A stretch of 41,316 nucleotides of DNA from a virus. The stretch spans positions 1 through 41,316 of IMG/VR virus record IMGVR_UViG_3300045988_047412. One strand, given 5' to 3'. Numbering within the stretch: position 1 is the stretch's first letter; each line of letters opens with the position of its first letter. A model generated the notes under the pieces. That model was not told the DNA's origin and searched no databases. It saw only the letters and a program-made list of their open reading frames with translations. Both the position numbers and the translations under genes were made by a program. Below, one piece after another: positions 4,773 to 18,036 of the stretch.

Positions 4773-4978
4773 TCTTTCCTCCTATATCTCGCAAACCGCA
4801 CGGTCTCGCCGTAGCGGTTCTTCTGTGCGATCGTCTCCACGTCCAGCGCCACGCCGTCCCGCCGCAAGTCGGAGACCCGCGCCGTGAAATTGGCGATGCC
4901 GCACTCGCTCATGGCCTCGGCCCATGTGATGCTGCCGTGTTCATCCAGATACTTCAAGATCCGCTCACACTGGTTCAT
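4769..4978 (-). CDS. Winged-helix DNA-binding protein
   Basis: MNQCERILKYLDEHGSITWAEAMSECGIANFTARVSDLRRDG; RBS GGAGGA upstream of the ATG at 4978. Confidence 0.65.
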   Translation of the reverse strand: MNQCERILKYLDEHGSITWAEAMSECGIANFTARVSDLRRDGVALDVETIAQKNRYGETVRFARYRRKE

Positions 4979-4979
4979 A

Positions 4980-5183
4980 TCAGTCCTCCGGGATGTCGAT
5001 GATCGCGATCCCCATGGCCCGCGCCACGGCTTCCGGATCGCTGTCAACTTCATCCTTGAGCCAATCTTTCGCGCACTCCGGGCAGTAGCACTCGCCGTTG
5101 ATCAAAAACCCCGGAGCCACATCGTCAAACGCATTGGGGTTCATAACGATGGAACATCTTGCGCACACCGGATAGATCTTCAT
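4980..5183 (-). CDS. Small Cys-rich hypothetical protein
   Basis: MKIYPVCARCSIV...CYCPEC; ATGA overlap with the upstream Lar-like gene. Confidence 0.55.
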   Translation of the reverse strand: MKIYPVCARCSIVMNPNAFDDVAPGFLINGECYCPECAKDWLKDEVDSDPEAVARAMGIAIIDIPED

Positions 5184-5380
5184 TTCCACGCATCCCCTCT
5201 CTTCCACGCTTTCGTGGCGTTGGATTGCTGGGCGTAACCCGCTGTGATAGCGCCGCAGGTGGAACACCGTACATAGTGCTTAAACGGTGCGTCCGTGGAC
5301 TGCACCCGCTCACCGCTGTCCATGCCGCAGACCGGGCAGAGATCCAGCGGAAAGCGCTCATGCCGGTTCTTTCTGTTCAT
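5180..5380 (-). CDS. Lar-family restriction alleviation protein (paralog 1)
   Basis: CPVCG...YVRCSTCGA...ATKAW pattern of the Lar_restr_allev family. Start at the internal Met (5380). Confidence 0.55.
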   Translation of the reverse strand: MNRKNRHERFPLDLCPVCGMDSGERVQSTDAPFKHYVRCSTCGAITAGYAQQSNATKAWKRGDAWK

Positions 5381-5502
5381 CGCGCGCTCACCACCATATA
5401 CGCAATGGTGATCAGCAGCAGGGCCAGAAAACTCATAAAGCCCATCCATGCGGAGGCGTCCGCCTTCCGCTGCTCTCTGGTGCGCCGGTCATGCTTTCTC
5501 AT
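5377..5502 (-). CDS. 41-aa membrane peptide
   Basis: Not in the ORF track (<60 aa). ATG at 5502 is preceded by AAGGAGG. Sequence MRKHDRRTREQRKADASAWMGFMSFLALLLITIAYMVVSAR; ATGA overlap with the next gene. Confidence 0.5.
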   Translation of the reverse strand: MRKHDRRTREQRKADASAWMGFMSFLALLLITIAYMVVSAR

Positions 5503-5596
5503 GCGGATTCCCTCCTTCGATGAAATCTACGATCTTGAATACCCAAGTGGCCGCATACGCCACGCCCAGGATCATAAAAAACAGGTTCCAGCTCAT
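5489..5596 (-). CDS. 35-aa hydrophobic peptide
   Basis: MSWNLFFMILGVAYAATWVFKIVDFIEGGNPHEKA; RBS AGAGGGGGA; ATGA overlap with the upstream ORF. Confidence 0.45.
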   Translation of the reverse strand: MSWNLFFMILGVAYAATWVFKIVDFIEGGNPHEKA

Positions 5597-5745
5597 TGTT
5601 TGATGTCCCCCTCTTTGGTGTAAACACCGTCAAACTCAAGGCCATGCTCCCTCGACCAGATCTTGCCGAACTCCGTCATGATCTTCACCGGGTCAGGCGG
5701 AGACACCCAGATCACCCGGTATTCGATTTTTCGTTTCTTCGCCAT
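5593..5745 (-). CDS. 50-aa hypothetical protein
   Basis: MAKKRKIEYRVIWVSPPDPVKIMTEFGKIW...; purine-rich RBS; first gene after the Cro-like gene. Confidence 0.5.
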   Translation of the reverse strand: MAKKRKIEYRVIWVSPPDPVKIMTEFGKIWSREHGLEFDGVYTKEGDIKQ

Positions 5746-5851: not shown

Positions 5852-6077
5852 ATTCCCCATCGCTGGATTCGAACAGTTCGTCCACCGTCACGCCGTACAT
5901 CCTCGCCAGCTTCTTGTGGTACTTCCGTGCCGGTCGCCAGTCACCCAGCTCCCAATGCGTCACACAGGACAAGTCCACATTCAGTTTCTTCGCTACCTGT
6001 GCACGGGTCAGGCTGGAACGTTCTCGAAGTTCCTTCAATGCCAAGTCATGTGCCCTCCTTTCGGTGTGAGAATTCAT
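5850..6077 (-). CDS. Cro-like XRE-family HTH regulator
   Basis: LKELRERSSLTRAQVAKKLNVDLSCVTHWELG. The ATG at 6077 has no SD; an in-frame TTG at 6044 sits 9 nt after AGGAGG and may be the true start. Confidence 0.8.
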   Translation of the reverse strand: MNSHTERRAHDLALKELRERSSLTRAQVAKKLNVDLSCVTHWELGDWRPARKYHKKLARMYGVTVDELFESSDGE

Positions 6078-6105
6078 TGACTGCGGCAGAAATATGTGGT
6101 ATGGT
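6077..6105 (+). promoter_or_regulatory. Sigma-70-type promoter TTGACT-N17-(TGg)TATGGT
   Basis: -35 at 6077..6082, 17-nt spacer, extended -10 TGgTATGGT ending at 6105. Divergent from the Cro-like gene and overlaps its ATG. Confidence 0.55.
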
Positions 6106-6111
6106 AAGCAT

Positions 6112-6230
6112 GGGAGTTAAACTACGCGCCAAATGGCGTACTCTGTTGCAGAGGGGTATTCCATTTAGCAAACGAGTTCGCTTCCAACCGCTCCGAAGTT
6201 TGTTGCAGAGACTTCGGGGCGGTTTTTTAT
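6112..6230 (+). ncRNA. Candidate small RNA (about 115 nt) with two hairpins that both show a UGUUGCAGAG loop; the second is an intrinsic terminator
   Basis: Promoter at 6077-6105. Hairpin 6131..6166 (AAATGG..TACTC-tgttgcagag-GGGTA..CCATTT). Hairpin 6188..6222 (CCGAAGT-ttgttgcagag-ACTTCGG) followed by T6 at 6223-6228. Confidence 0.45.
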
Positions 6231-6258
6231 CTCTGCCGCAGTCAATGTGAGTTTTCAC

Positions 6259-6287
6259 TTGACAAACGAAACCGCCGCCGCTATCAT
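6259..6287 (+). promoter_or_regulatory. Near-consensus promoter TTGACA-N17-TATCAT for the plus-strand immunity operon
   Basis: -35 at 6259..6264, exact 17-nt spacer, -10 at 6282..6287. Confidence 0.6.
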
Positions 6288-6481
6288 GTAAGTGTCAGCC
6301 AACAAAATATCGTCTATGGAACCCGCAAAAAGGATTTTTCTTTGGGGGTCTGGTTTTTTGTTGTCTCTATGATAACTCACGAGATTATTATAGCTTACAT
6401 TTTGTGTGTTGTAAAGCCAAACACGACCATTTTGTTGGTTTTTGTGGAATTGCACAAAAATACATCTATTTTTTGGTAGAT

Positions 6482-7183
6482 ATGCTTTTAGACATTGACT
6501 TAATTCTTGCGCGGCCTAAAGGGCCGAATAACCCGTATGCCTATTATCCAGAACAGTATGAACAAAATTCATCACAAAGCATTATTGCGGCGAACTACAA
6601 ATATGATTTAACTCGTTTTTCGCAACATGAAGCGGATGTCGTCAGGAAAGTGCTGTCTATCGTTAAAACAAAGTACCCTGCGGAATTTCAGTCTCTTGGG
6701 CTTGTGAACGAGGCGTATGTAATAAAGTACAAGCCCCGATACGTACTTTTTGAAATTGCCGTAACAAAATATAGAAATTCGGCATCGGCTTTTGATAAAT
6801 TCGCGGTTGCTTATGCGTTTGCGAACAAAGGAGCTGATTTTAGGCTTGCTGCAATCGGAGCGTTTGAAGAAGCAATCGGAAAAATACCATTTACTGTTTT
6901 AGATAAATTTGCATCGTTAGACTTTACATTTACATGCAATATGTTTTCCAAGTTATACGAGCAAGAGTGGGAATTTGACAACGCCATATTTTGGTTAAAA
7001 AAGGCGATTCGCCGTGGTGGATTAAACAGCAAGTATTTCGCTGAGAGAATCAATAAAATAAAGAAAAGAAAAATTGACGTAATCAGGAACAACAAGCACA
7101 AGCGGAATAGACGGATATCTGTTGAAAACGAAAAATTTGAGCATGACGTACACGCTGCTGCATTACGATTTATTCAGGAGTAG
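6482..7183 (+). CDS. Hypothetical protein, first gene of the low-GC immunity island
   Basis: 233 aa counted from MLLDIDLILARPKG (the ORF track starts at an alternative codon at 6404). No motif recognised; basic KKRK-rich C-terminus. Confidence 0.6.
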   Translation: MLLDIDLILARPKGPNNPYAYYPEQYEQNSSQSIIAANYKYDLTRFSQHEADVVRKVLSIVKTKYPAEFQSLGLVNEAYVIKYKPRYVLFEIAVTKYRNSASAFDKFAVAYAFANKGADFRLAAIGAFEEAIGKIPFTVLDKFASLDFTFTCNMFSKLYEQEWEFDNAIFWLKKAIRRGGLNSKYFAERINKIKKRKIDVIRNNKHKRNRRISVENEKFEHDVHAAALRFIQE

Positions 7184-7185
7184 AT

Positions 7186-7623
7186 ATGCCAAAAAGAGAT
7201 ACAGTCCAACCAAACGTAGATTCGATAGCAGAAAAAGTTTCGGCTAAAAGCTGGAGCGAAGCATCATTTTCGAAAATGATCGGGAAACACAAGAGGTGGT
7301 TAAGTGAAGTAAGGCGTGGGAAAAATCTCCCATCCCCAGAAGAAGCCGCACGGATATGTCAGCTTCTTAAAGCTACTCCCGACGAAATTTTGTTGTGCGA
7401 GGGGGAAACCCCAGAAGCAACCGCAAAGTGCTTAGAGAATATTGAGACGGTGCGGAAACTGGTCGAGGCTGAGGGCATAAAAGAAACCCCCGATCCGAAG
7501 ATCGAGGGTGTGAGCGCGGAAGCGCAGGAAATATTAGATTATATCCGGGATGCGACACCCGCCGAACTGGCGGAAGTCTGCCGGTATATCGGGTATCTGA
7601 AAAGCAAGAGGGGCACGGAATGA
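7186..7623 (+). CDS. HTH DNA-binding protein, candidate CI-like repressor
   Basis: 145 aa; SFSKMIGKHKRWLSEVRRGKNLPSPEEAARICQLL HTH; RBS CAGGAG. Confidence 0.65.
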   Translation: MPKRDTVQPNVDSIAEKVSAKSWSEASFSKMIGKHKRWLSEVRRGKNLPSPEEAARICQLLKATPDEILLCEGETPEATAKCLENIETVRKLVEAEGIKETPDPKIEGVSAEAQEILDYIRDATPAELAEVCRYIGYLKSKRGTE

Positions 7624-8063
7624 AACTGAACCCAGATTGCTTGCGGGATATTATGCTTTTGGTCGAAGATCGTATTTCCGTTGAAACTGCGATTGAAAAT
7701 CCAAATGGGCTAAGAAAATTTAGCTATGTCAGCATTCCCTGTTTGGTGCGCTTGCTTCCTGACAGCTATTCAAAAGAAGAGATCATATATCATATTGTGC
7801 AGCTTTCAGAAAGCGGATACTTAAAAACAGATTTTTCCTTTGCAACAAGCGAAATGTTTGGATACTTTTACTTGAATACAATTTATCACATCACGCCAAA
7901 AGGCCATGACTTTATCGCAAACATCGGGGGAAAAGAAAGCTGGGCAAAAACAAACGCTGTTTTAAAATCCTTGAAGTCAATATCTCTATCGGTAATTGAA
8001 ACGGTGGCAAAGGGTATCACTTCGGCCATAGTAGATCAATACATTGCAGGCTTTCAGGCATAA
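7620..8063 (+). CDS. DUF2513-like protein
   Basis: MKLNPDCLRDIMLLVEDR... N-terminus typical of DUF2513 prophage proteins. ATGA overlap with the upstream gene. Confidence 0.55.
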   Translation: MKLNPDCLRDIMLLVEDRISVETAIENPNGLRKFSYVSIPCLVRLLPDSYSKEEIIYHIVQLSESGYLKTDFSFATSEMFGYFYLNTIYHITPKGHDFIANIGGKESWAKTNAVLKSLKSISLSVIETVAKGITSAIVDQYIAGFQA

Positions 8064-8286
8064 TACTGTACCCGCCGTCATTATTGGCGGTTACAGAAAT
8101 GGGAGCGCTCTTGAATGCTCCTTGCTTTAGCGTTTCATAATTGCTGCATTTAATAGCCTCCGCCAAACAGCCTGGAACAAGCGTAGCGCATTCCGCCGAA
8201 ATGCCAGACGCTTCTAATACGTTGAGACACGCGTTTACAGCTTTAAGGACGTTGGGATTTTCATACCACAATTGATTATACACCAT
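8017..8286 (-). CDS. Hypothetical protein
   Basis: 89 aa with a strong RBS (AAAGGAGGAAACG ATG). Convergent with 7620..8063 and overlaps it by 47 nt. Confidence 0.55.
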   Translation of the reverse strand: MVYNQLWYENPNVLKAVNACLNVLEASGISAECATLVPGCLAEAIKCSNYETLKQGAFKSAPISVTANNDGGYSIMPESLQCIDLLWPK

Positions 8287-8393
8287 CGTTTCCTCCTTTA
8301 ATCATTCGCAGCAATTCTACCTGTTCCTCTTGCGGCAAAAGCAGTACGGCATGCATCAGTTTGTTGCGAATTTCTTCAAGCTGTTCTGTTGCC

Positions 8394-8422
8394 ATTATAT
8401 CACAGTTTGCCGGTAAATCCAA
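8394..8422 (-). promoter_or_regulatory. Near-consensus promoter TTGGAT-N17-(TGa)TATAAT
   Basis: Minus strand reads TTGGATttaccggcaaactgtgaTATAAT; -35 = 8417..8422, -10 = 8394..8399. Drives gene 8017..8286. Confidence 0.6.
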
Positions 8423-8584
8423 CATCTATGTATCCTCCGTTCATCATTTGCGAATAGAACGTCTGTTCGATTATTATAGCACACCACCATGATTTTGCAA
8501 CCGAAAGATATGGGGGCATGACGGTTGCCCGCGCATATTGAATATTTACATATACGCATATAAAAGAATGAAAGGAGCTTTACT

Positions 8585-8833
8585 ATGGTTTGCCCTAATT
8601 GCGGAAGCGAAAATGTAACAATCTCTATGGAGCAAGTGTCAAGTAAAACCAAAAAGCACGGGAACGGCATCGGAGGCCATATCAACAATGCTGCTCGCGG
8701 CTTGATGGCGGTATCAACCCTTGGCATGTCTAATCTCGTGTGGAAGAAAAGCAAAGGTGGCGAAAAGACCGTTGTAAAAAATCAAAAGATTTGCCTTTGC
8801 CAGAATTGCGGAAACTCTTGGGAAATAAAGTAA
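8585..8833 (+). CDS. Zinc-ribbon protein
   Basis: MVCPNCGSENV...CLCQNCGNSWEIK; RBS GAAAGGAG. Confidence 0.7.
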   Translation: MVCPNCGSENVTISMEQVSSKTKKHGNGIGGHINNAARGLMAVSTLGMSNLVWKKSKGGEKTVVKNQKICLCQNCGNSWEIK

Positions 8834-8836
8834 GTG

Positions 8837-8879
8837 AAAAACCCGGCCCCGCCGCCTCTGCAACAAACGGCGGAGCCGG
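8837..8879 (-). terminator. Intrinsic terminator on the minus strand, an inverted homolog of the 6188 hairpin
   Basis: Minus strand: CCGGC-u-CCGCCGU-uuguugcagag-GCGGCGG-g-GCCGG then GTTTTTC. The U-G pair exists only on the minus strand. Confidence 0.6.
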
Positions 8880-9037
8880 AAGCAAGCCGGGGGACGTCGG
8901 CTTGCCGTAATCAAAGCGTAGCAAAAACAGGGTTGGGTGGGCAAGTCCCAAAGCTTGGTTTTTGGCATTTTCAGCCGTTTAAAAGTTTGTGCCGCCTTTA
9001 CCCATATTTTGATTTTGGGGGTAAGGAGGCACTTTTT

Positions 9038-9472
9038 ATGACAATTCAGGAAGTTTGTAAGGCGAAACGTAACGCTTTGGGTATGACCATTCAGGACATA
9101 GCTGAAGCATCGGGAATTCCGCCGTCTACCGTCAACAATTTCTTTACCCATGCTTCCAAGGCCCCCTATATCTCCACGGTTGGGCCAATATGCGCCGTCC
9201 TTGGCGTGTCGCTGGATGAATTTTACGGCATCGGAGATCATCTGACGGCCAGTGAGGAAACGTTGCAAGCGGAAAAGGACGGACTAGAACACCGCCTTGA
9301 GAATAAGCGGCAGACCATCGGCCTGATGGACACAGAACTGTGCAATCTTTGGCACTCCGTGAAGCTATACAGGTGGATCATACTCGGTTTGTCACTATTG
9401 ATCATCGGGCTTTTTGCCTGGTGCGTTTGGGTTGACATCCATTGTGCTAACTATGGATTTTGGAGGGGATAA
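9038..9472 (+). CDS. XRE-family HTH protein with a C-terminal transmembrane helix
   Basis: 144 aa; LGMTIQDIAEASGIPPSTVNNF HTH, coiled segment, then WIILGLSLLIIGLFAWCVWV. RBS TAAGGAGG; stops 2 nt before the integrase start. Confidence 0.75.
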   Translation: MTIQEVCKAKRNALGMTIQDIAEASGIPPSTVNNFFTHASKAPYISTVGPICAVLGVSLDEFYGIGDHLTASEETLQAEKDGLEHRLENKRQTIGLMDTELCNLWHSVKLYRWIILGLSLLIIGLFAWCVWVDIHCANYGFWRG

Positions 9473-9473
9473 C

Positions 9474-10814
9474 ATGTGCCAAAAAATAGTGGTCACTCTA
9501 CCAAAGAATCTACGCATCCGTGTAGCACTGTACATCAGGGTATCGACCGAAGAACAGGCGAAGCACGGACTGTCACTGGCAGACCAGCGGGAGGCCCTGA
9601 CGGCCTATGCCGCAGCACACAACATGGAGGTGGTGGGCATTTACGAGGACGCCGGAATTAGCGCCAGAAAGCCGTATAAAAAGCGTCCGGCCTTGATGCG
9701 CCTACTCGATGATTGCAACGCTGGGAAAGTCGACACCATCCTTTTTGTCAAGCTGGATAGGTGGTTTCGGAATGTGGCAGGGTACTACGCCGTGCAAGAG
9801 GTTCTCGACAAAAATCATGTGGCTTGGCAGGCCATCAGAGAGGACTACGAAACTCGGACTGCATCAGGGCGATTGAAGGTCAATATTATGTTGTCGGTAG
9901 CGCAGGACGAAGCTGACCGCACATCGGAGCGCATTAAGGCCATCAACGAGGGCAAGAGGGCAAAGGGTCAGCCCACCAACGGGAAAACTCCCATCGGCAT
10001 CTGCGTGAAGAATCGGCACTACGCCATTGATAAAGAAACCGCAGATGCGGCGCGAGATATGTTCCCAGCCTTTATACGGCTGCAAAGCATCCTTGCATTA
10101 AGGCGGTATATGGCAACGGAGTGGGGAATCAAACGCTCGTACAACAAATACAAGGATGCTTTGGGAAACCGGTTGTACTTGGGTGAGGCGTTCGGCGTGG
10201 AAAACGCATTGCCAGCACTCATCGATCAAGAAACCTTTGACCTTGCCGGAAAAATCCTTGAACGGCGAAGCCAGCGGAACGCCAGTGCGGATCGAATATA
10301 TTTGTTTACCGGGATTCTCCGCTGCCGGGAGTGCGGGAGAAACATGCAGCCGGAAACTGTAAAACAGGTGTACAAGTACTACCGATGCAGAACGCACACA
10401 CTCGACCCAGCCGACTGTCCGCACATTCTCAGGATCCGGGAAGATGTGCTGGAGGATTACCTTCTGCGGGAATTTGAGGGGATCGCAAAAAAGTATTACT
10501 CCAAATCAAAAACCGCAGAAAAAAAGCCGCCCAAAACGGCGGAGCAAATCAAGCGGAAAATGCAAAAACTGAAAGACCTGTATTTGTCGGATTTGATTGA
10601 AATCGAAGAATACAAAAAAGACTATACGGAATTGAAACAGCAGCTCGCGGCAATAAACCCAGAGCCTATAAAAGAATTTGACCTTGAAACATTACGGCGA
10701 GAGTTGAAGGAATATCCTGATTTAGACCGGCAGGCAAAAAAGGAATTCTGGGTACGCACAATCCAGCGCATCGACGCAGACAATGATGGTGCGTTTTTTA
10801 TAACGCCAAGTTAG
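9474..10814 (+). CDS. int: Large serine recombinase (phage integrase)
   Basis: 446 aa; ALYIRVSTEEQ...GLSLADQ resolvase catalytic domain, recombinase domain, zinc ribbon CRECG...YYRCRTH, C-terminal coiled coil. RBS GGAGGGGA. Confidence 0.9.
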   Translation: MCQKIVVTLPKNLRIRVALYIRVSTEEQAKHGLSLADQREALTAYAAAHNMEVVGIYEDAGISARKPYKKRPALMRLLDDCNAGKVDTILFVKLDRWFRNVAGYYAVQEVLDKNHVAWQAIREDYETRTASGRLKVNIMLSVAQDEADRTSERIKAINEGKRAKGQPTNGKTPIGICVKNRHYAIDKETADAARDMFPAFIRLQSILALRRYMATEWGIKRSYNKYKDALGNRLYLGEAFGVENALPALIDQETFDLAGKILERRSQRNASADRIYLFTGILRCRECGRNMQPETVKQVYKYYRCRTHTLDPADCPHILRIREDVLEDYLLREFEGIAKKYYSKSKTAEKKPPKTAEQIKRKMQKLKDLYLSDLIEIEEYKKDYTELKQQLAAINPEPIKEFDLETLRRELKEYPDLDRQAKKEFWVRTIQRIDADNDGAFFITPS

Positions 10815-10856
10815 TCTTATTTTCATGTCGCAACGCCTACGTTAAAATATAACTAA
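10811..10856. other. Candidate attP for the serine integrase
   Basis: 46-bp imperfect dyad right at the integrase stop: TTAGTCTTATTTTCATGTCGC-AA-CGCCTACGTTAAAATATAACTAA. Outer TTAGT/ACTAA and ATTTT/AAAAT match. Confidence 0.3.
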
Positions 10857-10881
10857 CCCCCCGGCATTTGCCGAGGGGGTT
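10855..10881. terminator. Bidirectional hairpin terminator between the convergent integrase and cargo operon
   Basis: AACCCCC-CGGC-attt-GCCG-a-GGGGGTT, with an A-rich run upstream and a T-rich run downstream. Confidence 0.7.
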
Positions 10882-10885
10882 AAGT

Positions 10886-11188
10886 TTAGTTTTCCAATTT
10901 CCGCATGACGCTATTATAAACCCGCTCGTTGACCACTTTCAAGCTGTCCATCAGCTCGTCCATGACCTCCCACGCACGGGCTGTGTCAACGTTAGACACC
11001 GCCCGGAGGAAATCGCTGTCAGGCGCGGGAGCCGCAGAATACGCCTCAGCCATACGGCTTTCCCTCACCGGCTCTCGGTTCTGGTTTTGGATGGTATACA
11101 GTGCCGCCAGTCTTTCATAGTTCGCCCAGCTGGACTCTTCTGTTTCTAACCGCTTGATCCATAGCGCCAATTCTCGCTCGTCAATCAT
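10886..11188 (-). CDS. Hypothetical helical protein (last gene of the cargo operon)
   Basis: 100-aa ORF, MIDERELALWIKRLETEESSW...; no motif recognised. Confidence 0.6.
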   Translation of the reverse strand: MIDERELALWIKRLETEESSWANYERLAALYTIQNQNREPVRESRMAEAYSAAPAPDSDFLRAVSNVDTARAWEVMDELMDSLKVVNERVYNSVMRKLEN

Positions 11189-11202
11189 TGGGGCCTACCC
11201 CC

Positions 11203-11568
11203 TTAGTCCTCCATCATGTCCATTGCACGGCGCAGGGCGTCCTTGATGCGGTCATCGTCGGTCTCGCGCATCATATCGTTGATCTGATCGCGCAGATGCT
11301 CAGTTGCGTCCGTGCGGCTGTAATGACCACGGACATAATGTCTCCGGGCATAGGAGCTGCCACGGCTGTAGCCACGCAGATCATCGTCCAGATAGCGCCC
11401 GGAATATCCACGCTCGTCCATCGCCTCGATCTTGTCGATATTTTTGATGGTGTCCGTCAGCTTGTGGGCAATGTCCAGATCCCCGGCACCCAGCTCGCCC
11501 TTGCGGATCAGCTCGTCAAGCTCTTTGCAAAGCATATCCCGCAGTTCATACATAGATTTCATTCCCAT
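11203..11568 (-). CDS. Hypothetical protein with a helical N-domain and a basic Tyr/Arg/Ser/Gly-rich segment
   Basis: MGMKSMYELRDMLCKELDELIRKGELGAGDLDIAHKLTDTIKNIDKIE...GYSGRY...YSRGSSYARRHYVRGHYSR; RBS AAAGGAG. Confidence 0.65.
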   Translation of the reverse strand: MGMKSMYELRDMLCKELDELIRKGELGAGDLDIAHKLTDTIKNIDKIEAMDERGYSGRYLDDDLRGYSRGSSYARRHYVRGHYSRTDATEHLRDQINDMMRETDDDRIKDALRRAMDMMED

Positions 11569-11582
11569 TGTGTTCTCCTTTC

Positions 11583-12008
11583 TCAGCAAACTCTGGTAAT
11601 GATAAGGTTCGCGTTGCTCACGTCAATAGACTCGTCGCTAACGTTGCGGATGGACAGCGACGCGCAGCAGCCCTTTGTAACGTCAACGTACTCGGACGCC
11701 GCCACGTTGAAAAATGCCCCCGCAACCGTGGGCGTCACCGTCGCAACGGAGGACGGGAGCGGCTCACCGTCAACCGCAATGGCAACGGAGATGGGGCCGG
11801 GGGTCCCGCCGGTGCTTACGGCAATATTGCCGATAAAGTCCACCTTATAGCGGACGCGGCACTGGGAGCAGTTACCACGGAGGTTAAACAGGCCGGAGCC
11901 TGCGCGGTGCGTCACAAGGCCCTTAGTGCAGGGGATCGGTGCTTCCGTAAAAAGCACGTTCTGGTTTGCCGCTACGGTCTGTGCGGCAATGGCAGTGTAT
12001 TCAGGCAT
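11583..12008 (-). CDS. BclA-C-terminal-like (C1q/TNF jelly-roll-like) domain protein
   Basis: 141 aa. The pattern Q.V..NQNVLF...G..H..GSGLFNL.G...Y.V.F...V...G..ISVAIAVDG..LP.S......A...N.....V.....SLSIRN.S...I.V..ANL.I.R resembles exosporium BclA C-terminal domains. Six Cys, including the terminal C. Confidence 0.5.
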   Translation of the reverse strand: MPEYTAIAAQTVAANQNVLFTEAPIPCTKGLVTHRAGSGLFNLRGNCSQCRVRYKVDFIGNIAVSTGGTPGPISVAIAVDGEPLPSSVATVTPTVAGAFFNVAASEYVDVTKGCCASLSIRNVSDESIDVSNANLIITRVC

Positions 12009-12124
12009 AGAAATCTCCTTTCATAAAATCAGCGGCAGGGCTACTGCCCCGCCGCTTTGTCATCAGTATCGGCATGGGGCCGACCATTTCCCCGACATGG
12101 AGGAAAAGCTACGTTATGCAGTTG

Positions 12125-12841
12125 TCAGCAACCGCATCCGGCAAACTGGTTGCAGCAATAGGGGTTCTGCACCGTGTAGGCCGGAATGGGAGAAGGCCGG
12201 AGCTGAGAAACCAGATAGCTGTTCTGTGCCGCCTGAGATGCGGCCAGCTTCAAGCCCTGGTTCTCGCTCTGGAGATCCTGCAGCTTGCTCTGGGTCAGGA
12301 AATCCAAAATGGCGCGGCTGTTGCTGTTGGCATTGTCGATAATGTCCCGGGTGGCGTTCTGCACCGTGTTCCGGGTATCGCACGCCTGCGCGGCCATGTC
12401 ATAGCGCACGCCCTCGATGCTGCGCTGGGTGTTGCAGCAGCACTCAGCGGCCTGCATCTGCATGGCAGTCAACTGCTGCATGAGAGCCGCCTGCTGGTTA
12501 CTGCGGGAAAGCTCAGCCTGCCCAAAGCCGTTTGCCATCGCCATGTTGGTGCCGTTGATAAGCTGCGCCTGCTGGTAAAATCCGTCGCAAAGCCCCTGAT
12601 TTACACTGTCGATCTTGCGCTCGACATTGGCAAAATCAGAGGTCAGGACATAACCGTCCATCACGCCGTTGCCGCCGCCACCGAAACCAAAGCCGTTACC
12701 CCAGCCACCGAACGCAGCGAAAATGAGGAACAGCACGATCCACCATGCGCCATCGCCGCCCCAGCCGAAGCCGTTACCGTTTCCGGTGTTGGCAGGAGCC
12801 ACAGGCATAGTCAGCATGGTGCCGTCAGAGGAAAGAGACAT
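12125..12841 (-). CDS. Gly-rich membrane protein with a Gln-rich coiled region and a Cys-rich C-terminus
   Basis: 238 aa; GNGNGFGWGGDGAWWIVLFLIFAAFGGWGNGFGFGGGGNG (YjcZ-like tiny-TM composition); AAECCCNTQ; C-terminal NPYCCNQFAGCGC. RBS AAAAGGAG. Confidence 0.7.
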   Translation of the reverse strand: MSLSSDGTMLTMPVAPANTGNGNGFGWGGDGAWWIVLFLIFAAFGGWGNGFGFGGGGNGVMDGYVLTSDFANVERKIDSVNQGLCDGFYQQAQLINGTNMAMANGFGQAELSRSNQQAALMQQLTAMQMQAAECCCNTQRSIEGVRYDMAAQACDTRNTVQNATRDIIDNANSNSRAILDFLTQSKLQDLQSENQGLKLAASQAAQNSYLVSQLRPSPIPAYTVQNPYCCNQFAGCGC

Positions 12842-12894
12842 AGTATCACTCCTTTTGAAAAAATATTTATATCAAACCGTGGCCACGATTTTGA

Positions 12895-13116
12895 TTACTT
12901 GAAAAGCCCCTGAAATTGGTTTGCCATTGACTGTATCTTGTTCAACTGATCTTGTGAGATTTTGCCGCTTTGCAGCATCTTCTCCACTTCCGCTTTTGGG
13001 TCGCCTTTAAAACTTGCCTTGAACTGCTTGAACTGCTGTAAAAGCTGAGGAAAGCCGCTCATCGACCCCGGCATCTGTCCGCCACCTAACGCATTGAAAA
13101 ACGGATTGTTACTCAT
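12895..13116 (-). CDS. Small hypothetical protein
   Basis: 73 aa, MSNNPFFNALGGGQMPG...; overlaps the upstream gene by 8 nt. Confidence 0.6.
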   Translation of the reverse strand: MSNNPFFNALGGGQMPGSMSGFPQLLQQFKQFKASFKGDPKAEVEKMLQSGKISQDQLNKIQSMANQFQGLFK

Positions 13117-13543
13117 CGTCCTCTTCCTCCTCTACCTTGCGCTTCTTCTTGCCCTTCAATTCGCCCACAAGCGCCGCTAGTGCGTCGAATTCTTTTCTGG
13201 TGACAAACTCCACGCCCTTTTCCTGCGTGGCTGTACGGGGCGTTTCTGTGCGTTCTACGAGGTCATAAATCGTGAGGGACGGTTTACCGCTGGCATCCGC
13301 CTTCTTGAGGTACACCGTAGGCGCGGAGCTGTCCCACAAAGCCACGGCGGCATTGGGCGCAATCATCCAGTTCCGGGCCTCCTGTTCGCCGCTGACCCAC
13401 TGCACACCGCTCTGCGCCACCGGATTCTGAGGAGGCTGTGGTGCCATCATTGGAGGCATCTGCTGTTGACGGAGTTGTGCCAGATTATCCGGCATGGGCT
13501 GTGCATAATAAGGGTTTTGCCATCCGTAAGGTGTGTAAGCCAT
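13109..13543 (-). CDS. Pro/Gln-rich hypothetical protein
   Basis: Start taken at the second ATG, 9 nt after AAGGAGG. P/Q/M-rich N-terminus, conserved-looking core VQWVSGEQEARNWMIAPNAAVALWD, acidic-basic tail. Confidence 0.65.
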   Translation of the reverse strand: MAYTPYGWQNPYYAQPMPDNLAQLRQQQMPPMMAPQPPQNPVAQSGVQWVSGEQEARNWMIAPNAAVALWDSSAPTVYLKKADASGKPSLTIYDLVERTETPRTATQEKGVEFVTRKEFDALAALVGELKGKKKRKVEEEEDDE

Positions 13544-13544
13544 T

Positions 13545-13925
13545 TTAGTCATCCTCCTTGACCCAGTAATACAAGATGTTCTCGTTGCTGCTGTCCCAGC
13601 TGTCCCAGATCATGCCGTCGCAGACGCAGACCACATGGCCGGACAGAGCCAGAATATAGGTGCCTTTTGGGTGATCCTCCGCAAATTGGCCCACCGTGTA
13701 GCAGTCTGGGCAGGTGTCCGGCACGATGTACCGCCGATATCCGATGCTGCGGAGATACCGCCCCCAACAGGCGTTTGCCGACGGCATATCCCCGTCCAGA
13801 TACCCTTGGATACAGAGCCGCAAATAAATTTCGCCCCAATCCATCCCGGTAGCCTTGACGATTGCCCGCACGGTGCAGTCCCCTACATTTTTCCCGCAGG
13901 GGTTGGGGTTGAAATGGTTATACAT
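13545..13925 (-). CDS. Hypothetical protein with a papain-like Cys/His arrangement
   Basis: MYNHFNPNPCGKNVGDCTVRAI ... LSGHVVCVCDGMIWDSWDS. The Cys...His...Asp order is compatible with a cysteine-peptidase fold (inference only). Confidence 0.5.
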   Translation of the reverse strand: MYNHFNPNPCGKNVGDCTVRAIVKATGMDWGEIYLRLCIQGYLDGDMPSANACWGRYLRSIGYRRYIVPDTCPDCYTVGQFAEDHPKGTYILALSGHVVCVCDGMIWDSWDSSNENILYYWVKEDD

Positions 13926-14055
13926 ACTCCCTCCGGTCATCGTAGATCAGCTCAATCATGCGCACACAGCGTTCCAGCTCCGCTGGATCGGTCTGCGCAA
14001 CAATATCTCGCGCCAACTCCACCGGATACCCGCAGGCCAAAAGCCGCTCGTACAT
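13918..14055 (-). CDS. 45-aa hypothetical protein, first gene of the cargo operon
   Basis: MYERLLACGYPVELARDIVAQTDPAELERCVRMIELIYDDRREYV; RBS AAAGGAGG 8 nt upstream. Confidence 0.5.
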   Translation of the reverse strand: MYERLLACGYPVELARDIVAQTDPAELERCVRMIELIYDDRREYV

Positions 14056-14102
14056 TGTGTGCGCCTCCTTTACACTTCTATGATACAAAAAATCCGGACA
14101 GC

Positions 14103-14145
14103 CAAACTGCCCGGAAACTGCCTGTATTCTGCCCTCAAACTGCCC
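14103..14145. repeat. Three helically phased direct repeats CAAACTGCCC / GAAACTGCCT / CAAACTGCCC
   Basis: Copies at 14103, 14114 and 14136 (11- and 22-bp spacing), between the terminator at 14150 and the cargo operon start. Confidence 0.8.
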
Positions 14146-14149
14146 AAAG

Positions 14150-14180
14150 AAAAGCCGTGTCCGAATCGGACACGGCTTTT
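14150..14180. terminator. Perfect palindromic bidirectional terminator
   Basis: AAAAGCCGTGTCCGA-a-TCGGACACGGCTTTT, immediately after the stop of gene 14183..14419. Confidence 0.8.
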
Positions 14181-14182
14181 CT

Positions 14183-14419
14183 CTATCCCTGCATATCATC
14201 CGCAATTTTTGCGTAGGCCCTTCGTCTGATCTTGGCCAACCCATCTACGCTGACGTGGAGCAGCGCCGCCGCTTGCAGGCAGCTCTGGCCGTGGACGTCC
14301 ACCGCCAGCACCGCCGCTTCCTCGTCAGGCGGCAAGCCTACCAGCCGGACGGCCTGCGCCGCCCGGGCCGGGGCCATGGATGACAACAGCGCCCGGATCT
14401 CTCGGTTTGTTTTTTCCAT
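14183..14419 (-). CDS. Small sigma-70 region-4-like HTH protein
   Basis: 78 aa; LPPDEEAAVLAVDVHGQSCLQAAALLHVSVDGLAKIRRRAYAKI resembles sigma region 4 / LuxR-type HTH. Confidence 0.6.
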   Translation of the reverse strand: MEKTNREIRALLSSMAPARAAQAVRLVGLPPDEEAAVLAVDVHGQSCLQAAALLHVSVDGLAKIRRRAYAKIADDMQG

Positions 14420-14487: not shown

Positions 14488-14889
14488 TTAGCCTGTCCAG
14501 TCGGCTTTTGCTTCCCTCACATCAATGTGCGTGAAGCCTTTCTTGGCGTAGATGCCGACGCCGCCCCAGTCTGGCATGATCGACCGGGCGAAGGCCGCCA
14601 CCGTCTCCGGCTTCTGGCCGCTGACGGAGATATCCGCCGCCATGCCATAGCAGTGCTGGCTATGGGCCACGCCGCCAACCTTGGCATTGTACTGCGGCGT
14701 GCGATAGGCGCTTTGGATCACCACCGGAGCGCCGAAGTGGGCGCGGATGGTCTCCAGCACCATCACCAGCCGGGGAGCCACCAAAACAGCGTCACTGCCG
14801 TCTCCACACGCAAACTCCCGCTCCTTGAAATGGGCGGATAGCTGCTTGCCCCCGGAGGCGGCTTTGCTGTAAGCGTGGATCTCAACCAT
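14488..14889 (-). CDS. Peptidase M15A-family cell-wall hydrolase (endolysin candidate)
   Basis: FKEREFACGDG...IQSAYRTPQYNAKVGGVAHSQHCYGMAADI: Zn-ligand pattern of M15 D,D/L,D-peptidases. Confidence 0.75.
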   Translation of the reverse strand: MVEIHAYSKAASGGKQLSAHFKEREFACGDGSDAVLVAPRLVMVLETIRAHFGAPVVIQSAYRTPQYNAKVGGVAHSQHCYGMAADISVSGQKPETVAAFARSIMPDWGGVGIYAKKGFTHIDVREAKADWTG

Positions 14890-15562
14890 GGTTATCCCCC
14901 CAGATCTGATACAGCGCCCGGACCATGTCGGCTCGGGTCACCGTCTCACCGGCGTTGGCGTCCGTCAGCAGGCGGTGAGACTTGCCCCATACGAGGGCTT
15001 GATCTTCCGGTTTTGCCGACCGCTCCCAGAACAACAGCAGCGTGGGCACCTTCCGGCTGCTAACCACCTTCCCGCCGGGGAAAATGCCCTGCGTGGAGCC
15101 GCCGCCGTCCAGCATGAGGGCGTCCATCACGCCCAGCCCCAGCAGCTTGTTCTGGAGCTGTTCACGGGTCAGGCTTGTCTTGTCGCACCACAGACAGACT
15201 TTGCCGTTAGCCAGCCAGCCCACCGCCGTCCGGGCGGCAGGCCGGGCCACGTCCGGCGTCAGCTCCCGGTACAACTTGGAGCCGCCCTTGAGGATCGAGA
15301 CGCCGGAGAGGAAGGATCCTCCCCGGTCCGTCAGCATCTTTGGCAATCCGTCAGTGCCGATGGACACGCCCCAGTCTTGGTATTTGTCCCGGCTGATGAC
15401 CTTGCCGTCAATCACCGTCCAGCCCACCGGCTGGAACTTGCCGTTAAACAGGTATCCGTTGATGATGTGGGTGCAGCCGGTCTTTGCCTTGATTTGCGCC
15501 GGGGTCAGCTTGCCGGTGTTGTGGTAGATCTGCGCTCTTGCGCAATCAAACGTATCAACCAT
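14882..15562 (-). CDS. Phosphodiester glycosidase (NAGPA/DUF2233)-family protein
   Basis: IINGYLFN...RTAVGWLANGKVCLWCD...LGVMDALMLDGGGSTQ, typical of the family. Start at the internal Met (15562). Confidence 0.6.
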   Translation of the reverse strand: MVDTFDCARAQIYHNTGKLTPAQIKAKTGCTHIINGYLFNGKFQPVGWTVIDGKVISRDKYQDWGVSIGTDGLPKMLTDRGGSFLSGVSILKGGSKLYRELTPDVARPAARTAVGWLANGKVCLWCDKTSLTREQLQNKLLGLGVMDALMLDGGGSTQGIFPGGKVVSSRKVPTLLLFWERSAKPEDQALVWGKSHRLLTDANAGETVTRADMVRALYQIWGDNHG

Positions 15563-15881
15563 GGCGCACGCGGGAAGCCTTGATGAAGTAGCCGTCCTCG
15601 TCATAAGTCACCTCATAGGTGGCTCCGACGATCCGCTGGATCTGGACGGTGCCCGCCAGATCCTCCCGGCGACGGGTATCCAGCGTCTGAGGAAGCGCCT
15701 CCGGCTCCTTCTCAGCGGGGACGAAGCCCTCCGCCATCTCGGCATCCGTCCAGCCCGCTACCTTACCGTCCGGATTCAGGTGGAAGTTTGCCCCCGCCGC
15801 TTTCAGTTCGGCGTTGATAGCTTCCACGGGCGCGCCCTGCTTCTTGCCCTCGTTGATGATATTCTCGTAGATCTTTTCCAT
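15555..15881 (-). CDS. Hypothetical protein
   Basis: 108 aa from MEKIYENIINEGKKQG; lies within the lysis region. Confidence 0.55.
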   Translation of the reverse strand: MEKIYENIINEGKKQGAPVEAINAELKAAGANFHLNPDGKVAGWTDAEMAEGFVPAEKEPEALPQTLDTRRREDLAGTVQIQRIVGATYEVTYDEDGYFIKASRVRHG

Positions 15882-16581: not shown

Positions 16582-18036
16582 TCAGTCGGTGGTCTTGGTG
16601 TATTTAAGCGTCGCATCAACACCATTTGTGTATTCTTTGATTCGAGCTAAGGCGTTAGAGCCAAGCTCAAATTTTATAACAGACGAATTTAACATATACT
16701 GAGCCGACCATGCAGTTGAATCAAAGTACGACCACGGGAGTATCCTGATCCAATCAGCTCTGCAATACACGCGTGCATCTACTAGGCGGTCCAGATGATC
16801 GATTCCATGGCTATACGATGGAAGCTGATTTTCAAAAGCGGATACTGGAATATTAAAGGTCTTTGTGTACACCGGCTTTCCGAGATACCGCTCCGTGGTG
16901 CGGTACTCAGTGCCAAGCGTCATGGGCGGGTTGATCCATTCGACGGGCTGCCAATTCCCGTTATCCTTCAGCATTCGCCACAATCCGTTGGTAGTGCCTC
17001 TCGGGTCGGGCGAAAGGCCGATCAGTGATGCGCTCGTCCCCAATATTTTTGATAGAACGGCAACGATATTCCCGGCCCCAGAATATTGGCCCGTTGAAAC
17101 TGGGCCACGTGTATAAATAAGTTGCGATGTTCCGTCGGGCATATCGGCAAGCAACATATCAAGCTTGCCACAGTATGTTTCATAGGTGTCTTCGGCATCA
17201 GATGCGAGCACATCTTTCATCGCTTCACCCCACCCAAACCCGCCGGGGGCGGAGTTGATATTTTTCCGCGCCTGCGCCTTCTGCGCATCGCTGAGCGTCT
17301 GCGGCGTGTAGAGCACCGCACCCTGTACGGTGTCCGCGCCGATGTTCGTCCGCGCCTGCGCCTTCTGCTCGTCTGTGAGGTTCTGGGGCGCATCGTAGCG
17401 GACGAAGTTGCTGGAACCGCCCACGGGGCCTTCCGGGCCTTGCTTGCCCTCCGGCCCCTGCTTTCCCTCAGGGCCTTGGATGCCCTGCTTGCCCTGCGGG
17501 CCTTGCAGGTTGCCGTTGGCCACCCACTTGCCGTGGACAGAATCCCAGATGTAGATGTTGTACGGAGGCGCGGTGCCCACGCCGTACACGTCACCGGCCT
17601 TGGGATTAGGGACGGCTGCCTTGAGGTCGGCCAGCGTGTCAAAGTAGCCCAGAATGGCGAAGCTGGCCCCGGCCTCGCCGGGATCGCCCTGGTCGCCCTT
17701 TTTGCCGGGAGGGCCAATGGGGCCTTTAATGGACGTCAGCGTCGTCAGCTTGAAGGCGTACACCCAGTTGGCCGTGCCCTTGAGGTACACCTTGCCGTAG
17801 TCCGCGGAGGCCGTGATGTCCGGCAGGATCAGGACGAACTGGCCGCGCTGGACGTCCGTACCGGTGAAGTCCTGGTTCATTTCGGTCACGCTCTTGTACT
17901 CCTTTGTAATGCCGATAGGCACACCGGCGGACGCCAGCCGCGCGTCGATTTCCTCGCCGGAGTAGGCGGATGTGTAGTAGTCTTGCAGTTTGGCAAAAAT
18001 TTCCTCCAAAGCTGCGACTCTCTGTTCAATCGTCAT
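16582..18036 (-). CDS. Tail fibre / receptor-binding protein with collagen-like repeats
   Basis: 484 aa; G-X-Y runs at 17668..17727 and 17416..17505; two copies of PQ.L(T/S)D.QKAQAR.NI (17254..17388). The C-terminal about 170 aa lie in visibly lower-GC DNA. Confidence 0.8.
   Translation of the reverse strand: MTIEQRVAALEEIFAKLQDYYTSAYSGEEIDARLASAGVPIGITKEYKSVTEMNQDFTGTDVQRGQFVLILPDITASADYGKVYLKGTANWVYAFKLTTLTSIKGPIGPPGKKGDQGDPGEAGASFAILGYFDTLADLKAAVPNPKAGDVYGVGTAPPYNIYIWDSVHGKWVANGNLQGPQGKQGIQGPEGKQGPEGKQGPEGPVGGSSNFVRYDAPQNLTDEQKAQARTNIGADTVQGAVLYTPQTLSDAQKAQARKNINSAPGGFGWGEAMKDVLASDAEDTYETYCGKLDMLLADMPDGTSQLIYTRGPVSTGQYSGAGNIVAVLSKILGTSASLIGLSPDPRGTTNGLWRMLKDNGNWQPVEWINPPMTLGTEYRTTERYLGKPVYTKTFNIPVSAFENQLPSYSHGIDHLDRLVDARVYCRADWIRILPWSYFDSTAWSAQYMLNSSVIKFELGSNALARIKEYTNGVDATLKYTKTTD

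Follow-up and report, generated by a model that had tools for sequence, protein, structure and literature searches.

What do the eight genes between the lysis genes and the integrase gene of a gut phage contribute to the phage that carries them? The question is raised by a viral sequence of 41,316 nucleotides (IMG/VR record IMGVR_UViG_3300045988_047412, analysed at its full length and referred to here as the window), in which eight co-oriented and tightly packed open reading frames (ORFs) occupy positions 10886-14055 on the minus strand, as seen from the ORF list and a reading of the sequence. An earlier note on this DNA had described the region as a seven- or eight-gene cargo operon in the classic position of lysogenic-conversion genes, and had suggested that its products might alter the surface of the host's spores or cells. 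The operon itself is confirmed, with all eight minus-strand ORFs present; the role proposed for it is not. In our analysis the region is an accessory cassette that gut phages have conserved as a self-contained unit, and it is cargo neither for spores nor for lysogenic conversion. The cassette is widespread in phages, among them lytic phages that infect non-sporulating bacteria, and therefore does not qualify as a system for remodelling spores.

Read in the direction of transcription, the module opens with g45 (13918-14055), which encodes a helical protein of 45 amino acids (aa) with homologues in the comparison loci L003, L007, L019, L020 and L026 and in Butyrivibrio virus Ceridwen; no family match was obtained for it in Pfam or PHROGs. 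The next three genes encode g126 (13545-13925), a predicted small cysteine peptidase of 126 aa with Cys17-His97-Asp108 (phrog_3754, E 3e-34); g147 (13109-13552), 147 aa, which runs from a P/Q/Y-rich low-complexity N-terminus through about 50 conserved core residues and a helix to a charged tail (phrog_21718, E 6e-33); and g73 (12895-13116), 73 aa, with a G/M/P-rich N-terminus and a Q/K-rich helical C-terminus (phrog_22984, E 8e-23). They are followed by the core of the module, the 238-aa T protein (12125-12841; phrog_16490, E 5e-45), and by a 141-aa stand-alone jelly roll resembling TNF, C1q and the C-terminal domain (CTD) of BclA, here called the TNF-like protein (11583-12008; phrog_20016, E 6e-49). 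The last two products are g121 (11203-11568), in which helical ends surround an R/Y/S/G/D-rich low-complexity centre (121 aa; weak match to phrog_28802, E 1e-8), and g100 (10886-11188), a helical protein of 100 aa with 20 syntenic homologues. Six of the eight products therefore match PHROG families, five of them at E 6e-49 to 8e-23, and all six families are of unknown function. The start of g126 was placed at an inner ATG (126 aa, compared with 131 aa in the ORF list) because of the ribosome-binding site GGAGGGAG and the homologues, and that of g121 at the ATG after AAGGAG (121 aa, compared with 128 aa from a TTG in the ORF list) because it is called so in relatives. Adjacent genes overlap by 8 nt at three junctions, and the remaining gaps measure 11-116 nt.

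Scans of Pfam, NCBIfam and PADLOC returned no family for any of the eight products; with PHROG included, none of them resembled a known virion, lysis or spanin family, as the earlier note had stated. The sequence features to which that note had drawn attention are likewise all present. They comprise a Gly-rich hydrophobic segment together with CCC and C-terminal CC..GCGC clusters, a stretch rich in R, Y, S and G, an N-terminus rich in P and Q and, in the small protein, cysteine, histidine and aspartate in a papain-like order. None of the eight products has a signal-peptide-like N-terminus, as judged by inspection of the translated N-termini. In g147, g73 and g121, conserved cores of helical or small beta type occur together with low-complexity stretches rich in P/Q/M/G or in R/Y/S/G/D. 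For g147, 33 homologues were found in the fetched loci, with no relative in the PDB by sequence or family profile and none in a Pfam scan of 16 members; g73 has syntenic homologues in 29 loci, and g121 has 22 syntenic homologues with a repeat region of variable length. The homologues of g100, which include proteins of Ceridwen, Dulem virus 33 and the Clostridium perfringens phage CPD1, share the C-terminal pattern ...V(M/I)DELM(D/E)...N.R.Y..V(M/L)(R/K)KL.

That these genes form a unit is evident from their distribution. The species genomes of GTDB were scanned with T, which yielded 30 loci, and all module proteins were then placed by tblastn. The order g126-g147-g73-T-TNF-g121-g100 was found in about 20 of the 30 loci; Dulem virus 33 has every gene of the set, likewise in this order. 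Ceridwen also carries the complete set, located after its lysin gene and a terminator and consisting of genes for products of 68, 125, 121, 66, 275 and 151 aa, an endonuclease gene, and genes for products of 128 and 108 aa. The genus Butyrivibrio, including B. fibrisolvens, is non-spore-forming. Ceridwen was isolated on B. fibrisolvens DSM 3071; only a lytic cycle was seen, no lysogeny genes were present and the phage was judged virulent (PMC7372960). Phage CPD1 has four of the eight genes (those like g147, g73, T and g100), with a different Cys-rich beta protein encoded after T. T is also encoded by Bacteroides phage C3_41T2LP and by no fewer than seven crAss-like phages. In cr116_1 and C3_41T2LP, the two that were examined in detail, the genes after T encode a Cys protein rich in beta structure, a protein with beta and coiled-coil parts, a small protein rich in R, D and Y, and a metallopeptidase. 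Phages of Oscillospiraceae, Lachnospiraceae and Clostridium thus inherit the cassette as a unit with its gene order kept. No free-standing chromosomal copy was found, and phage genes were present in all contexts inspected. As a separate observation, phage-size contigs with the Bacillota-type module were binned in metagenome-assembled genomes (MAGs) of Alloprevotella, Bacteroidales and Methanobrevibacter (L015/L016, L019 and L034); these are most likely mis-binned phage contigs, not pointers to true hosts.

The position of the cassette in the phage genome is variable. In the window it follows the holin, NAGPA and M15 lysin genes, and in Ceridwen and Dulem 33 it follows the lysin gene. In cr116_1 it lies after the holin and L,D-carboxypeptidase lysis genes and ahead of the scaffold and major capsid protein (MCP) genes, at a junction that is empty in the related phiCrAss001, a phage making complete virions. 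In L036 it is placed between the MCP and major tail genes, with XhlA-like and helix-turn-helix (HTH) genes ahead of it and a metalloprotease gene at its end, whereas L040 and L032 carry it directly after the gene for minor capsid protein 2 (Phage_min_cap2) and L035 downstream of a MuF-like gene (4245-5600). Adjacency to lysis genes therefore recurs in unrelated architectures, namely in the window, Ceridwen, Dulem 33, cr116_1 and L036 (XhlA-like). Two of these loci have further peculiarities. L040 (5364-13180) belongs to a complete Lachnospiraceae chromosome (CP143549) and L032 (6690-11731) to an Eisenbergiella MAG; in L040 the next same-strand ORF of at least 100 aa is found only at about 15.4 kb, and a C5 DNA methylase gene is inserted between the T and TNF-like genes. 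L040 and L032 may be defective prophages or an unusual element.

The T protein is the universal core of the module. One search gave 7933 matches among 8000 candidates, all of them near-identical sequences, and the family as a whole comprises 1734 clusters at 50% identity. From the N-terminus the protein has an MPVxP motif and a Gly-rich hydrophobic segment, then a coiled coil that is rich in Q, N and A and contains a CCC motif, and finally an LRPxPxPxY motif and a C-terminal GCxC motif. An alignment across members from Bacillota, crAss-like and Bacteroides phages shows these parts, with LRPxPxPxY as the end of a longer motif ASQxAQ...LRPxPxPxY and with invariant cysteines in CCC and the terminal GCxC. 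Lengths range from about 220 to 300 aa, and no domain fusions were found among the best 150 cluster representatives. The segment near its N-terminus is the only strongly hydrophobic one in the module (maximum 19-residue hydropathy 1.68). Apart from a spurious MC5 hit, nothing in NCBIfam or Pfam matched T at E <= 0.1, and its profile produced only weak matches in the PDB (E 0.05-1.4), to coiled coils, to influenza HA2 (fusion peptide and helix A) and to coronavirus S2 HR1, with E 0.2-1.4 for HA2 and S2. These recurrent weak matches to HA2 and S2 are probably the reason why database records call the crAss homologues 'spike protein/glycoprotein'. The earlier note had likened T to YjcZ-type sporulation peptides, a likeness that is compositional only, as no family model matched. 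T and a Cys-bearing beta protein form an obligate adjacent pair: in most of the 30 loci the partner is TNF-like, and in L025, L030 and L038 it is a Cys-rich protein of the CPD1 type. The partners of T in CPD1, cr116_1 and C3_41T2LP were considered as homologues of the TNF-like protein; hhalign gave no signal (probability < 1%), and a common origin is unproven.

For the TNF-like protein, 154 homologues were found, mostly on phage-size contigs, and an AlphaFold2 model built from a 45-sequence alignment has ten strands (predicted local distance difference test (pLDDT) 91.6, predicted TM-score (pTM) 0.85). In a Foldseek search of the PDB with this model, the top matches were F-BclA-CTD (9h38), BxpB (8d02), ExsFA (7r1m, 7r5i and 9h3d) and BclA (1wck and 3tyj), at E 1e-7 to 1e-5 and TM-scores of about 0.65-0.73; the match to 8d02 had E 4e-7, a TM-score of 0.73 and 12% identity, and those to 1wck, 3tyj, 2r6q and 9h38 had TM-scores of about 0.67-0.70. 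Chlamydial Pgp3, TNF-family ligands, C1q and cyanophage tail proteins (a short tail fibre and a portal-tail complex) appeared at lower ranks. In BFVD the best matches were stand-alone proteins of 130-145 aa from uncultured gut sipho-, myo- and podoviruses (Caudoviricetes), some of them named 'BclA protein', and many viral collagen/C1q proteins were matched as well. The protein is therefore confidently predicted to adopt a TNF/C1q/BclA-CTD-like fold, at the level of fold only, in agreement with the resemblance to the BclA C-terminal domain noticed earlier. Sequence identity in the structural alignments with the BclA/ExsFA-type matches is 12-17%; no Pfam or NCBIfam family was matched at E <= 0.1, and PDB sequence searches with the 141-, 126-, 238- and 147-aa proteins found nothing significant. 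The sequence has no GXX collagen repeats and no Collagen match, and its first beta-strand starts at residue 3; the model shows no N-terminal extension ahead of the jelly roll, and so no exosporium leader, F-ENA hook or targeting segment of the ExsFA/BxpB type. No Pfam signal for BclA_C, DUF3992 or DUF4183 was found in any module protein, nor for DUF3992 or DUF4183 in the Cys-rich beta protein of CPD1. The cysteines are of interest in a different way from that proposed earlier: the terminal Cys is not conserved, being mostly Ala in homologues, whereas C114-C115 is invariant and C27 nearly so. In the model, C114-C115 sits between strands 100-111 and 115-122, a position that, by the TNF/C1q strand order, we take for the F-G turn; this turn shares its face with the two termini, and a stalk attaches to that face in BclA and C1q. 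A relationship of this protein to the collagen-repeat tail fibre that the same phage encodes at 16582-18036 was also considered; on comparison the two are unrelated.

The protein g126 has 1736 homologues, and 40 sequences of 65-92% identity all have D16, C17, H97 and D108; the Cys-His-Asp set is also conserved in Ceridwen and Dulem 33, at 47-56% identity. In the AlphaFold2 model (pLDDT 93.5) the Cys is located on the N-terminal helix and the His on the beta-sheet. Foldseek found nothing below E 0.25, and the best matches were weak and papain-like: AvrPphB (0.25), Josephin-2 (0.33), Tae4 (0.83) and staphopain (1.1). We conclude that g126 is probably a Cys-His-Asp peptidase. Across the relatives a protease slot is kept while its fold is swapped, with papain-like g126 in the window, a metalloprotease in L036 (phrog_87) and a PolyVal metallopeptidase in C3_41T2LP. 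Homologues of g126 also occur alone in Lak megaphages.

Within this conserved frame, the TNF-like gene evolves separately. Between the window and L003, L006 and L007 all other module genes are 96-100% identical, compared with 49% for the TNF-like gene; in L019 the TNF-like protein is 89% and T 70% identical, and in L014 T is 97% and the TNF-like protein 46% identical. These discordant identities indicate that the knob is an exchangeable cassette in a conserved frame. The replacement coincides with an insertion, as L003-L008 (10903-11559) have an endonuclease-like ORF of 218 aa between T and the TNF-like gene, and the endonuclease insertion beside the TNF-like gene goes together with the replacement of that gene (49% identity). 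In the window only a hairpin occupies this 116-nt gap (12031-12056, minus strand; folding free energy -25.3 kcal/mol, z-score -6.0), a feature absent from the earlier note. In CPD1 and Dulem 33 an endonuclease-like gene separates g73 from T, and in Ceridwen one follows the TNF-like gene; insertions of this kind, some of them annotated 'endonuclease', are located in L002 (7017-7667), L001 (7280-7831, minus strand) and L009 (10860-11723). The cassette is thus a hot spot for homing-endonuclease insertion; it also moves between genome positions and is present or absent among close relatives.

A further set of relatives bears on the timing of expression. In-frame TAG codons occur in the g147, T or TNF-like gene of L024 (9401-9664), L027 (744-1960), L028 (1168-2645) and L034 (1065-1376), and when TAG is read as sense in L024 the ORF content rises from 4632 to 6972 aa (ORFs of at least 120 aa); these four look like TAG-recoded phages. 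One contig among the TAG-bearing relatives was binned in Methanobrevibacter and one in Christensenella. In recoded phages, such codons accumulate in genes for late structural and lysis functions, become readable only once the code has switched and tend to be absent from integrase genes (bioRxiv 10.1101/2021.08.26.457843). As a standard-code lysogen cannot read TAGs, their presence in the module argues that it is translated late in lytic growth and not from a resting prophage.

The boundaries of the module are marked by terminators. A perfect 19-bp hairpin flanked by an A-run and a T-run (14145-14185; folding free energy -30.6 kcal/mol, z-score -7.8) acts as a presumptive bidirectional terminator that separates the lysis and HTH genes from the module; none of 200 shuffled sequences was equally stable, and a hairpin is found at the equivalent position in Dulem 33, Ceridwen, L040, L014/L022 and L026. 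At the other end, a terminator hairpin closes the module (10857-10878, minus strand; folding free energy -24 kcal/mol, z-score -4.9), and beyond it lies a serine integrase gene that converges on the module (9414-10814, plus strand). The window was compared with an integrated copy in a 169,936-bp contig (L006), in which identity to the window is perfect down to about 10842 and gone by about 10828, and host genes for a TSCPD protein, a SleB-like Hydrolase_2 protein, PBP5 and a Germane-domain protein follow directly after g100. The loss of identity places the attP crossover region at about 10828-10845, between the module terminator and the integrase stop codon, and the L006 junction therefore shows that the window is an excised or circular form and the module the outermost block of the prophage. 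The earlier description of a separate, terminator-bounded unit that follows the lysis genes and ends beside the integrase is thus borne out.

The gene immediately upstream of the hairpin travels with the module and is the ninth member of the unit. This gene (14183-14419, minus strand) is the last one ahead of the hairpin and encodes a 78-aa HTH protein resembling sigma-70 region 4, a candidate regulator of the module; it matched Pfam Sigma70_r4_2 at E 1.2e-4 and 22.1 bits, under the cut-off of 25.7, and NCBIfam SigM at E 7e-5. A homologous or analogous small HTH gene is located upstream of the module in L014, L019, L020, L022, L026, L029, L036, L040, Dulem 33 and Ceridwen, and a hairpin follows the HTH gene in most loci whose intergenic region was read. 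The counterpart in L036 matched phrog_36 (E 2e-5) and phrog_1740 (E 9e-4), both of the transcription regulation category. On the module side of the hairpin, four GGCAG repeats with a spacing of exactly 11 nt (14107-14144, minus strand), three of which are GGCAGTTT, form a candidate operator array. GGCAGTTT occurs 6 times in the window, compared with 1.6 expected, with 3 of the occurrences within the array, and nowhere else in the 41-kb window do even two GGCAG follow each other at 11-nt spacing. The last repeat is also the 5' arm of a second terminator-like hairpin (14093-14115), just ahead of g45. The array could therefore be a DNA operator for the 78-aa HTH protein or, alternatively, an RNA attenuator. 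As a conserved operator it was rejected, being present only in close relatives (L020 and, reversed, L026) and not in Dulem 33, Ceridwen, L036 or L040. No convincing module promoter was identified in the window.

Outside the module, the window is a siphovirus-type phage genome in which the phage genes given here, except the integrase gene, all lie on the minus strand. They encode a terminase (30166-31431), an SPP1-type portal (28776-30131), a MuF-like protein (27203-28789), holin-like proteins, a NAGPA-domain protein (14882-15604) and an M15 endolysin (14488-14889). The last structural gene ahead of the holins encodes a presumed collagen-repeat tail fibre of 484 aa (16582-18036), with two short collagen-like GXX stretches (Pfam Collagen, E 4e-6). 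Near-identical phages are common as contigs of 38-43 kb, and the closest genome match in the scan with T was an uncultured Oscillospiraceae MAG (97%). Three tandem tyrosine-recombinase genes, on the strand opposite to the phage genes (38019-41222, plus strand; 410, 336 and 348 aa, all with Phage_integrase matches), have a GC content of about 45%, compared with 55-60% elsewhere, and look like a mobile element of the recombinase-in-trio type placed between the early region and the methylase/packaging end. Two DNA methyltransferase genes (31942-33132 and 36722-37909, both on the minus strand) encode a ParB-N-terminal/N6_N4 methylase fusion and a C5 cytosine methylase. Beside the integrase gene, a lower-GC block at 6000-9400 (41-46%) has plus-strand genes that include those for an HTH_3 protein (7186-7623) and a DUF2513 protein (7620-8063); it is variable among otherwise near-identical relatives and is probably a lysogeny or immunity module.

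How might the nine products act together? We tentatively propose a self-regulated late cassette in which a membrane-anchored coiled-coil stalk and an exchangeable Cys-linked knob act at the envelope around lysis and egress. T would insert in the cytoplasmic membrane by its Gly-rich hydrophobic segment and oligomerise by the long Q/N/A-rich coiled coil, and its Pro-rich linker and terminal Cys cluster would couple, through a disulfide or a metal, to C114-C115 of the TNF-like trimer. The outcome would be a two-piece stalk-and-knob assembly with the logic of BclA, C1q and viral fibres, made of two polypeptides and anchored in the membrane. Processing or scaffolding of the assembly may fall to the g126 peptidase, in whose place other versions have a metallopeptidase, and to three proteins of low-complexity or helical type, and the HTH protein from the end of the late operon may switch the cassette on very late. 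The site of action would be the cell envelope around lysis and egress, where the soluble parts, signal-less like canonical endolysins, would reach the wall only after holin action. This time and place fit the recurrence of the module beside lysis genes in unrelated architectures and the soluble parts without signal peptides.

Several points weigh against this proposal. No homology assigns a function to any component, as the searches of Pfam, NCBIfam, PADLOC and the PDB (by sequence and profile) and the Foldseek search with g126 were negative. The contact between T and the TNF-like protein, the oligomeric states and the membrane topology are ones that we infer, and the hydrophobic segment of T has no charged flanks that would orient it. 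Because the hosts include monoderm and diderm bacteria, a single envelope target is hard to name. Nor does the module always lie beside lysis genes: it follows recombination genes in C3_41T2LP and lies between KilA and a recombinase in CPD1, and in four Lachnospiraceae prophages it is found among head genes, which would fit a role in the virion equally well. Homologues of g126 occur alone in the early regions of Geobacillus phage GBK2 and Tsamsa-like Bacillus phages, and the regulatory scheme is uncertain because a promoter would find little space beside the hairpins of Ceridwen and Dulem 33.

The envelope proposal has to be weighed against three other explanations. The main rival, possible if doubtful, is that the cassette builds an accessory structure of the virion, with T as the shaft and the TNF-like trimer as the knob of a fibre or decoration on the head or tail. 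The peptidase and the scaffold-like proteins would help to assemble it, and the knob would bind glycans of the host cell or the gut. TNF/C1q-like jelly rolls are common as distal domains of viral fibres, as the Foldseek matches to a cyanophage short tail fibre and portal-tail complex recall, and the knob gene is hypervariable or swapped in the manner of receptor-binding genes. The location of the cassette within head-tail morphogenesis genes in L036, L035, L032 and L040, and just ahead of the scaffold and MCP genes in cr116_1, also points in this direction, as do the lack of signal peptides, the presence in virulent phages and the in-frame TAGs, which fit late structural genes. However, a membrane-like hydrophobic segment such as that of T would be unusual in the fibre of a tailed phage. 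In most genomes the cassette also follows the lysis genes and is set apart by a strong terminator and a regulator of its own, and its location varies too much for a gene linked to the capsid. Moreover, phiCrAss001 makes complete virions without the cassette, the phage of the window already has an unrelated collagen-repeat tail fibre, and no sequence or profile match to any solved virion protein was obtained.

Expression from the prophage is the common element of the other two explanations, and the recoded and lytic relatives speak against both. We regard it as improbable that the module is a classical moron, expressed by the prophage to change the membrane or surface of the lysogen, for example in superinfection exclusion or receptor masking, even though it is terminator-bounded, lies at the very end of the prophage beside attP and host DNA, is carried by some relatives and missing from others, comes with an HTH gene and a repeat array of its own, and encodes a membrane protein together with a variable binding domain. 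The module is complete in a lytic-only phage without lysogeny genes and also occurs in crAss-like phages, it lies inside head-tail blocks in other prophages, and the in-frame TAGs of recoded relatives would block its expression in a standard-code lysogen; eight genes would also be many for an exclusion system, and PADLOC gave no match. The claim of lysogenic-conversion cargo is not supported. Even less probable, to the point of being very nearly dismissed, is the idea that the cassette provides proteins of exosporium or appendage type, cross-linked by disulfides, with which the surface of a sporulating host's spores (or cells) is remodelled. Its appeal is that the best solved-structure matches of the TNF-like protein are Bacillus exosporium and appendage proteins, that exosporium proteins likewise lack signal peptides, that Cys clusters and Tyr/Arg-rich low-complexity regions are present, and that the likely host is a spore former, to judge from the SleB-like Hydrolase_2 and Germane-domain genes in L006. 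Yet the same module is found in the lytic phage of non-sporulating B. fibrisolvens, T occurs with analogous partners in Bacteroides and crAss-like phages, and features of BclA beyond the fold (collagen repeats, an exosporium leader and a BclA_C, DUF3992 or DUF4183 signal) are absent, the fold itself being equally common in viral proteins. All inspected contexts are phage, and the recoded relatives cannot express the module from a prophage, so that spore-surface remodelling, as suggested in the earlier note, does not withstand the comparison.

The cassette at the envelope around lysis and egress, which we favour tentatively, can also be seen more broadly. It is conceivable, though we consider it unlikely, that T and its exchangeable Cys-linked beta-sandwich partner represent an undescribed and widespread phage membrane machinery, a split stalk-and-knob complex of the C1q/BclA or the class I fusion kind, which a dedicated very late regulator would deploy at the end of infection in phages of Bacillota and Bacteroidota and which would act on the envelope or on released membranes. 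If this is true, the roles of such a machinery would be in egress, in membrane fusion or vesiculation, or in receptor masking on debris, and would add a new step to the lysis and release of tailed phages.

Whatever its role, this autonomous phage accessory cassette has undescribed content. In the literature on Ceridwen, the module-bearing C. perfringens phages, the crAss 'spike protein' and TNF-like decoration proteins, we found no functional or virion-proteomic work on these genes, and no paper treating them as a unit or giving them a function; the genes are already public and appear in PHROGs as 'unknown function'. The variant of the window recurs on hundreds of phage-size metagenome contigs, many of them from the gut, and none of its nine genes has a functional annotation. 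As a conserved, mobile and self-regulated nine-gene unit shared by phages of Oscillospiraceae, Lachnospiraceae and Clostridium, and in reduced form by crAss-like and Bacteroides phages, the cassette ranks among the larger functionally unassigned blocks in the gut virome. Two isolated phages, Ceridwen with the whole set and CPD1 with four of the eight genes, make the module directly testable. If a lysis or egress role or a new fibre proves true, the annotation of these genomes would change; the exchangeable TNF-like knob would also be a candidate determinant of specificity.

Comparison with known systems places the cassette near several of them and inside none. Its g126 follows papain-like peptidases such as C39, NlpC/P60, the Tae4 amidases and AvrPphB in the Cys-His-Asp order and its invariance, and differs from the characterised members in its smaller size of 126 aa and in having no significant structural or HMM (hidden Markov model) match. 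As a whole, the cassette resembles the morons and post-lysin cassettes of temperate Gram-positive phages in being independent, located between lysin and attP, present or absent, and mosaic; unlike morons, it comprises nine genes in conserved order, is kept in virulent phages and structural operons, and shows evidence for late lytic expression. As in the i-spanins of the lambda Rz type, conserved cysteines in T go together with a hydrophobic segment near the N-terminus and a coiled-coil-like composition, and its gene lies beside lysis genes, including those of crAss-like phages with diderm hosts. In contrast to two-component spanins, no product has a lipobox or signal N-terminus, the hosts are mainly monoderm (Oscillospiraceae, Lachnospiraceae and Clostridium) and no sequence relation was found. 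The spanin reading was therefore set aside for want of a lipobox partner, and the YjcZ reading for want of a family-model match. With the class I fusion proteins (influenza HA2, coronavirus S2 and retroviral TM), T shares a Gly-rich hydrophobic peptide, a long helical repeat and a Cys motif, although their matches to T are not significant and T, a protein of tailed phages, comes with no C-terminal anchor, enveloped virion or cleaved receptor-binding subunit.

The closest parallels are in architecture. F-BclA-CTD is a trimeric TNF-like knob on a stalk (PMC12357932), and the TNF-like protein shares with the CTDs of BclA and F-BclA and with ExsFA/BxpB the ten-strand jelly-roll topology and a size of about 135-150 aa, being stand-alone and signal-less like ExsFA/BxpB. 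It differs from BclA in having no collagen GXX or hook peptide, in occurring only in phage contexts and in a vicinal Cys pair specific to its family. The trimeric fibre-and-knob proteins of viruses are a further parallel: although stalk and knob are separate polypeptides in the cassette, a hydrophobic anchor is present, no homology to crAss001 gp21 or gp29 was found and phiCrAss001 has no cassette, the combination of an anchor, an oligomeric stalk and a variable beta-sandwich knob is one that the predicted T and TNF-like pair would have in common with adenovirus fibre, reovirus sigma1, SPP1 gp12 and crAss001 gp21/gp29.

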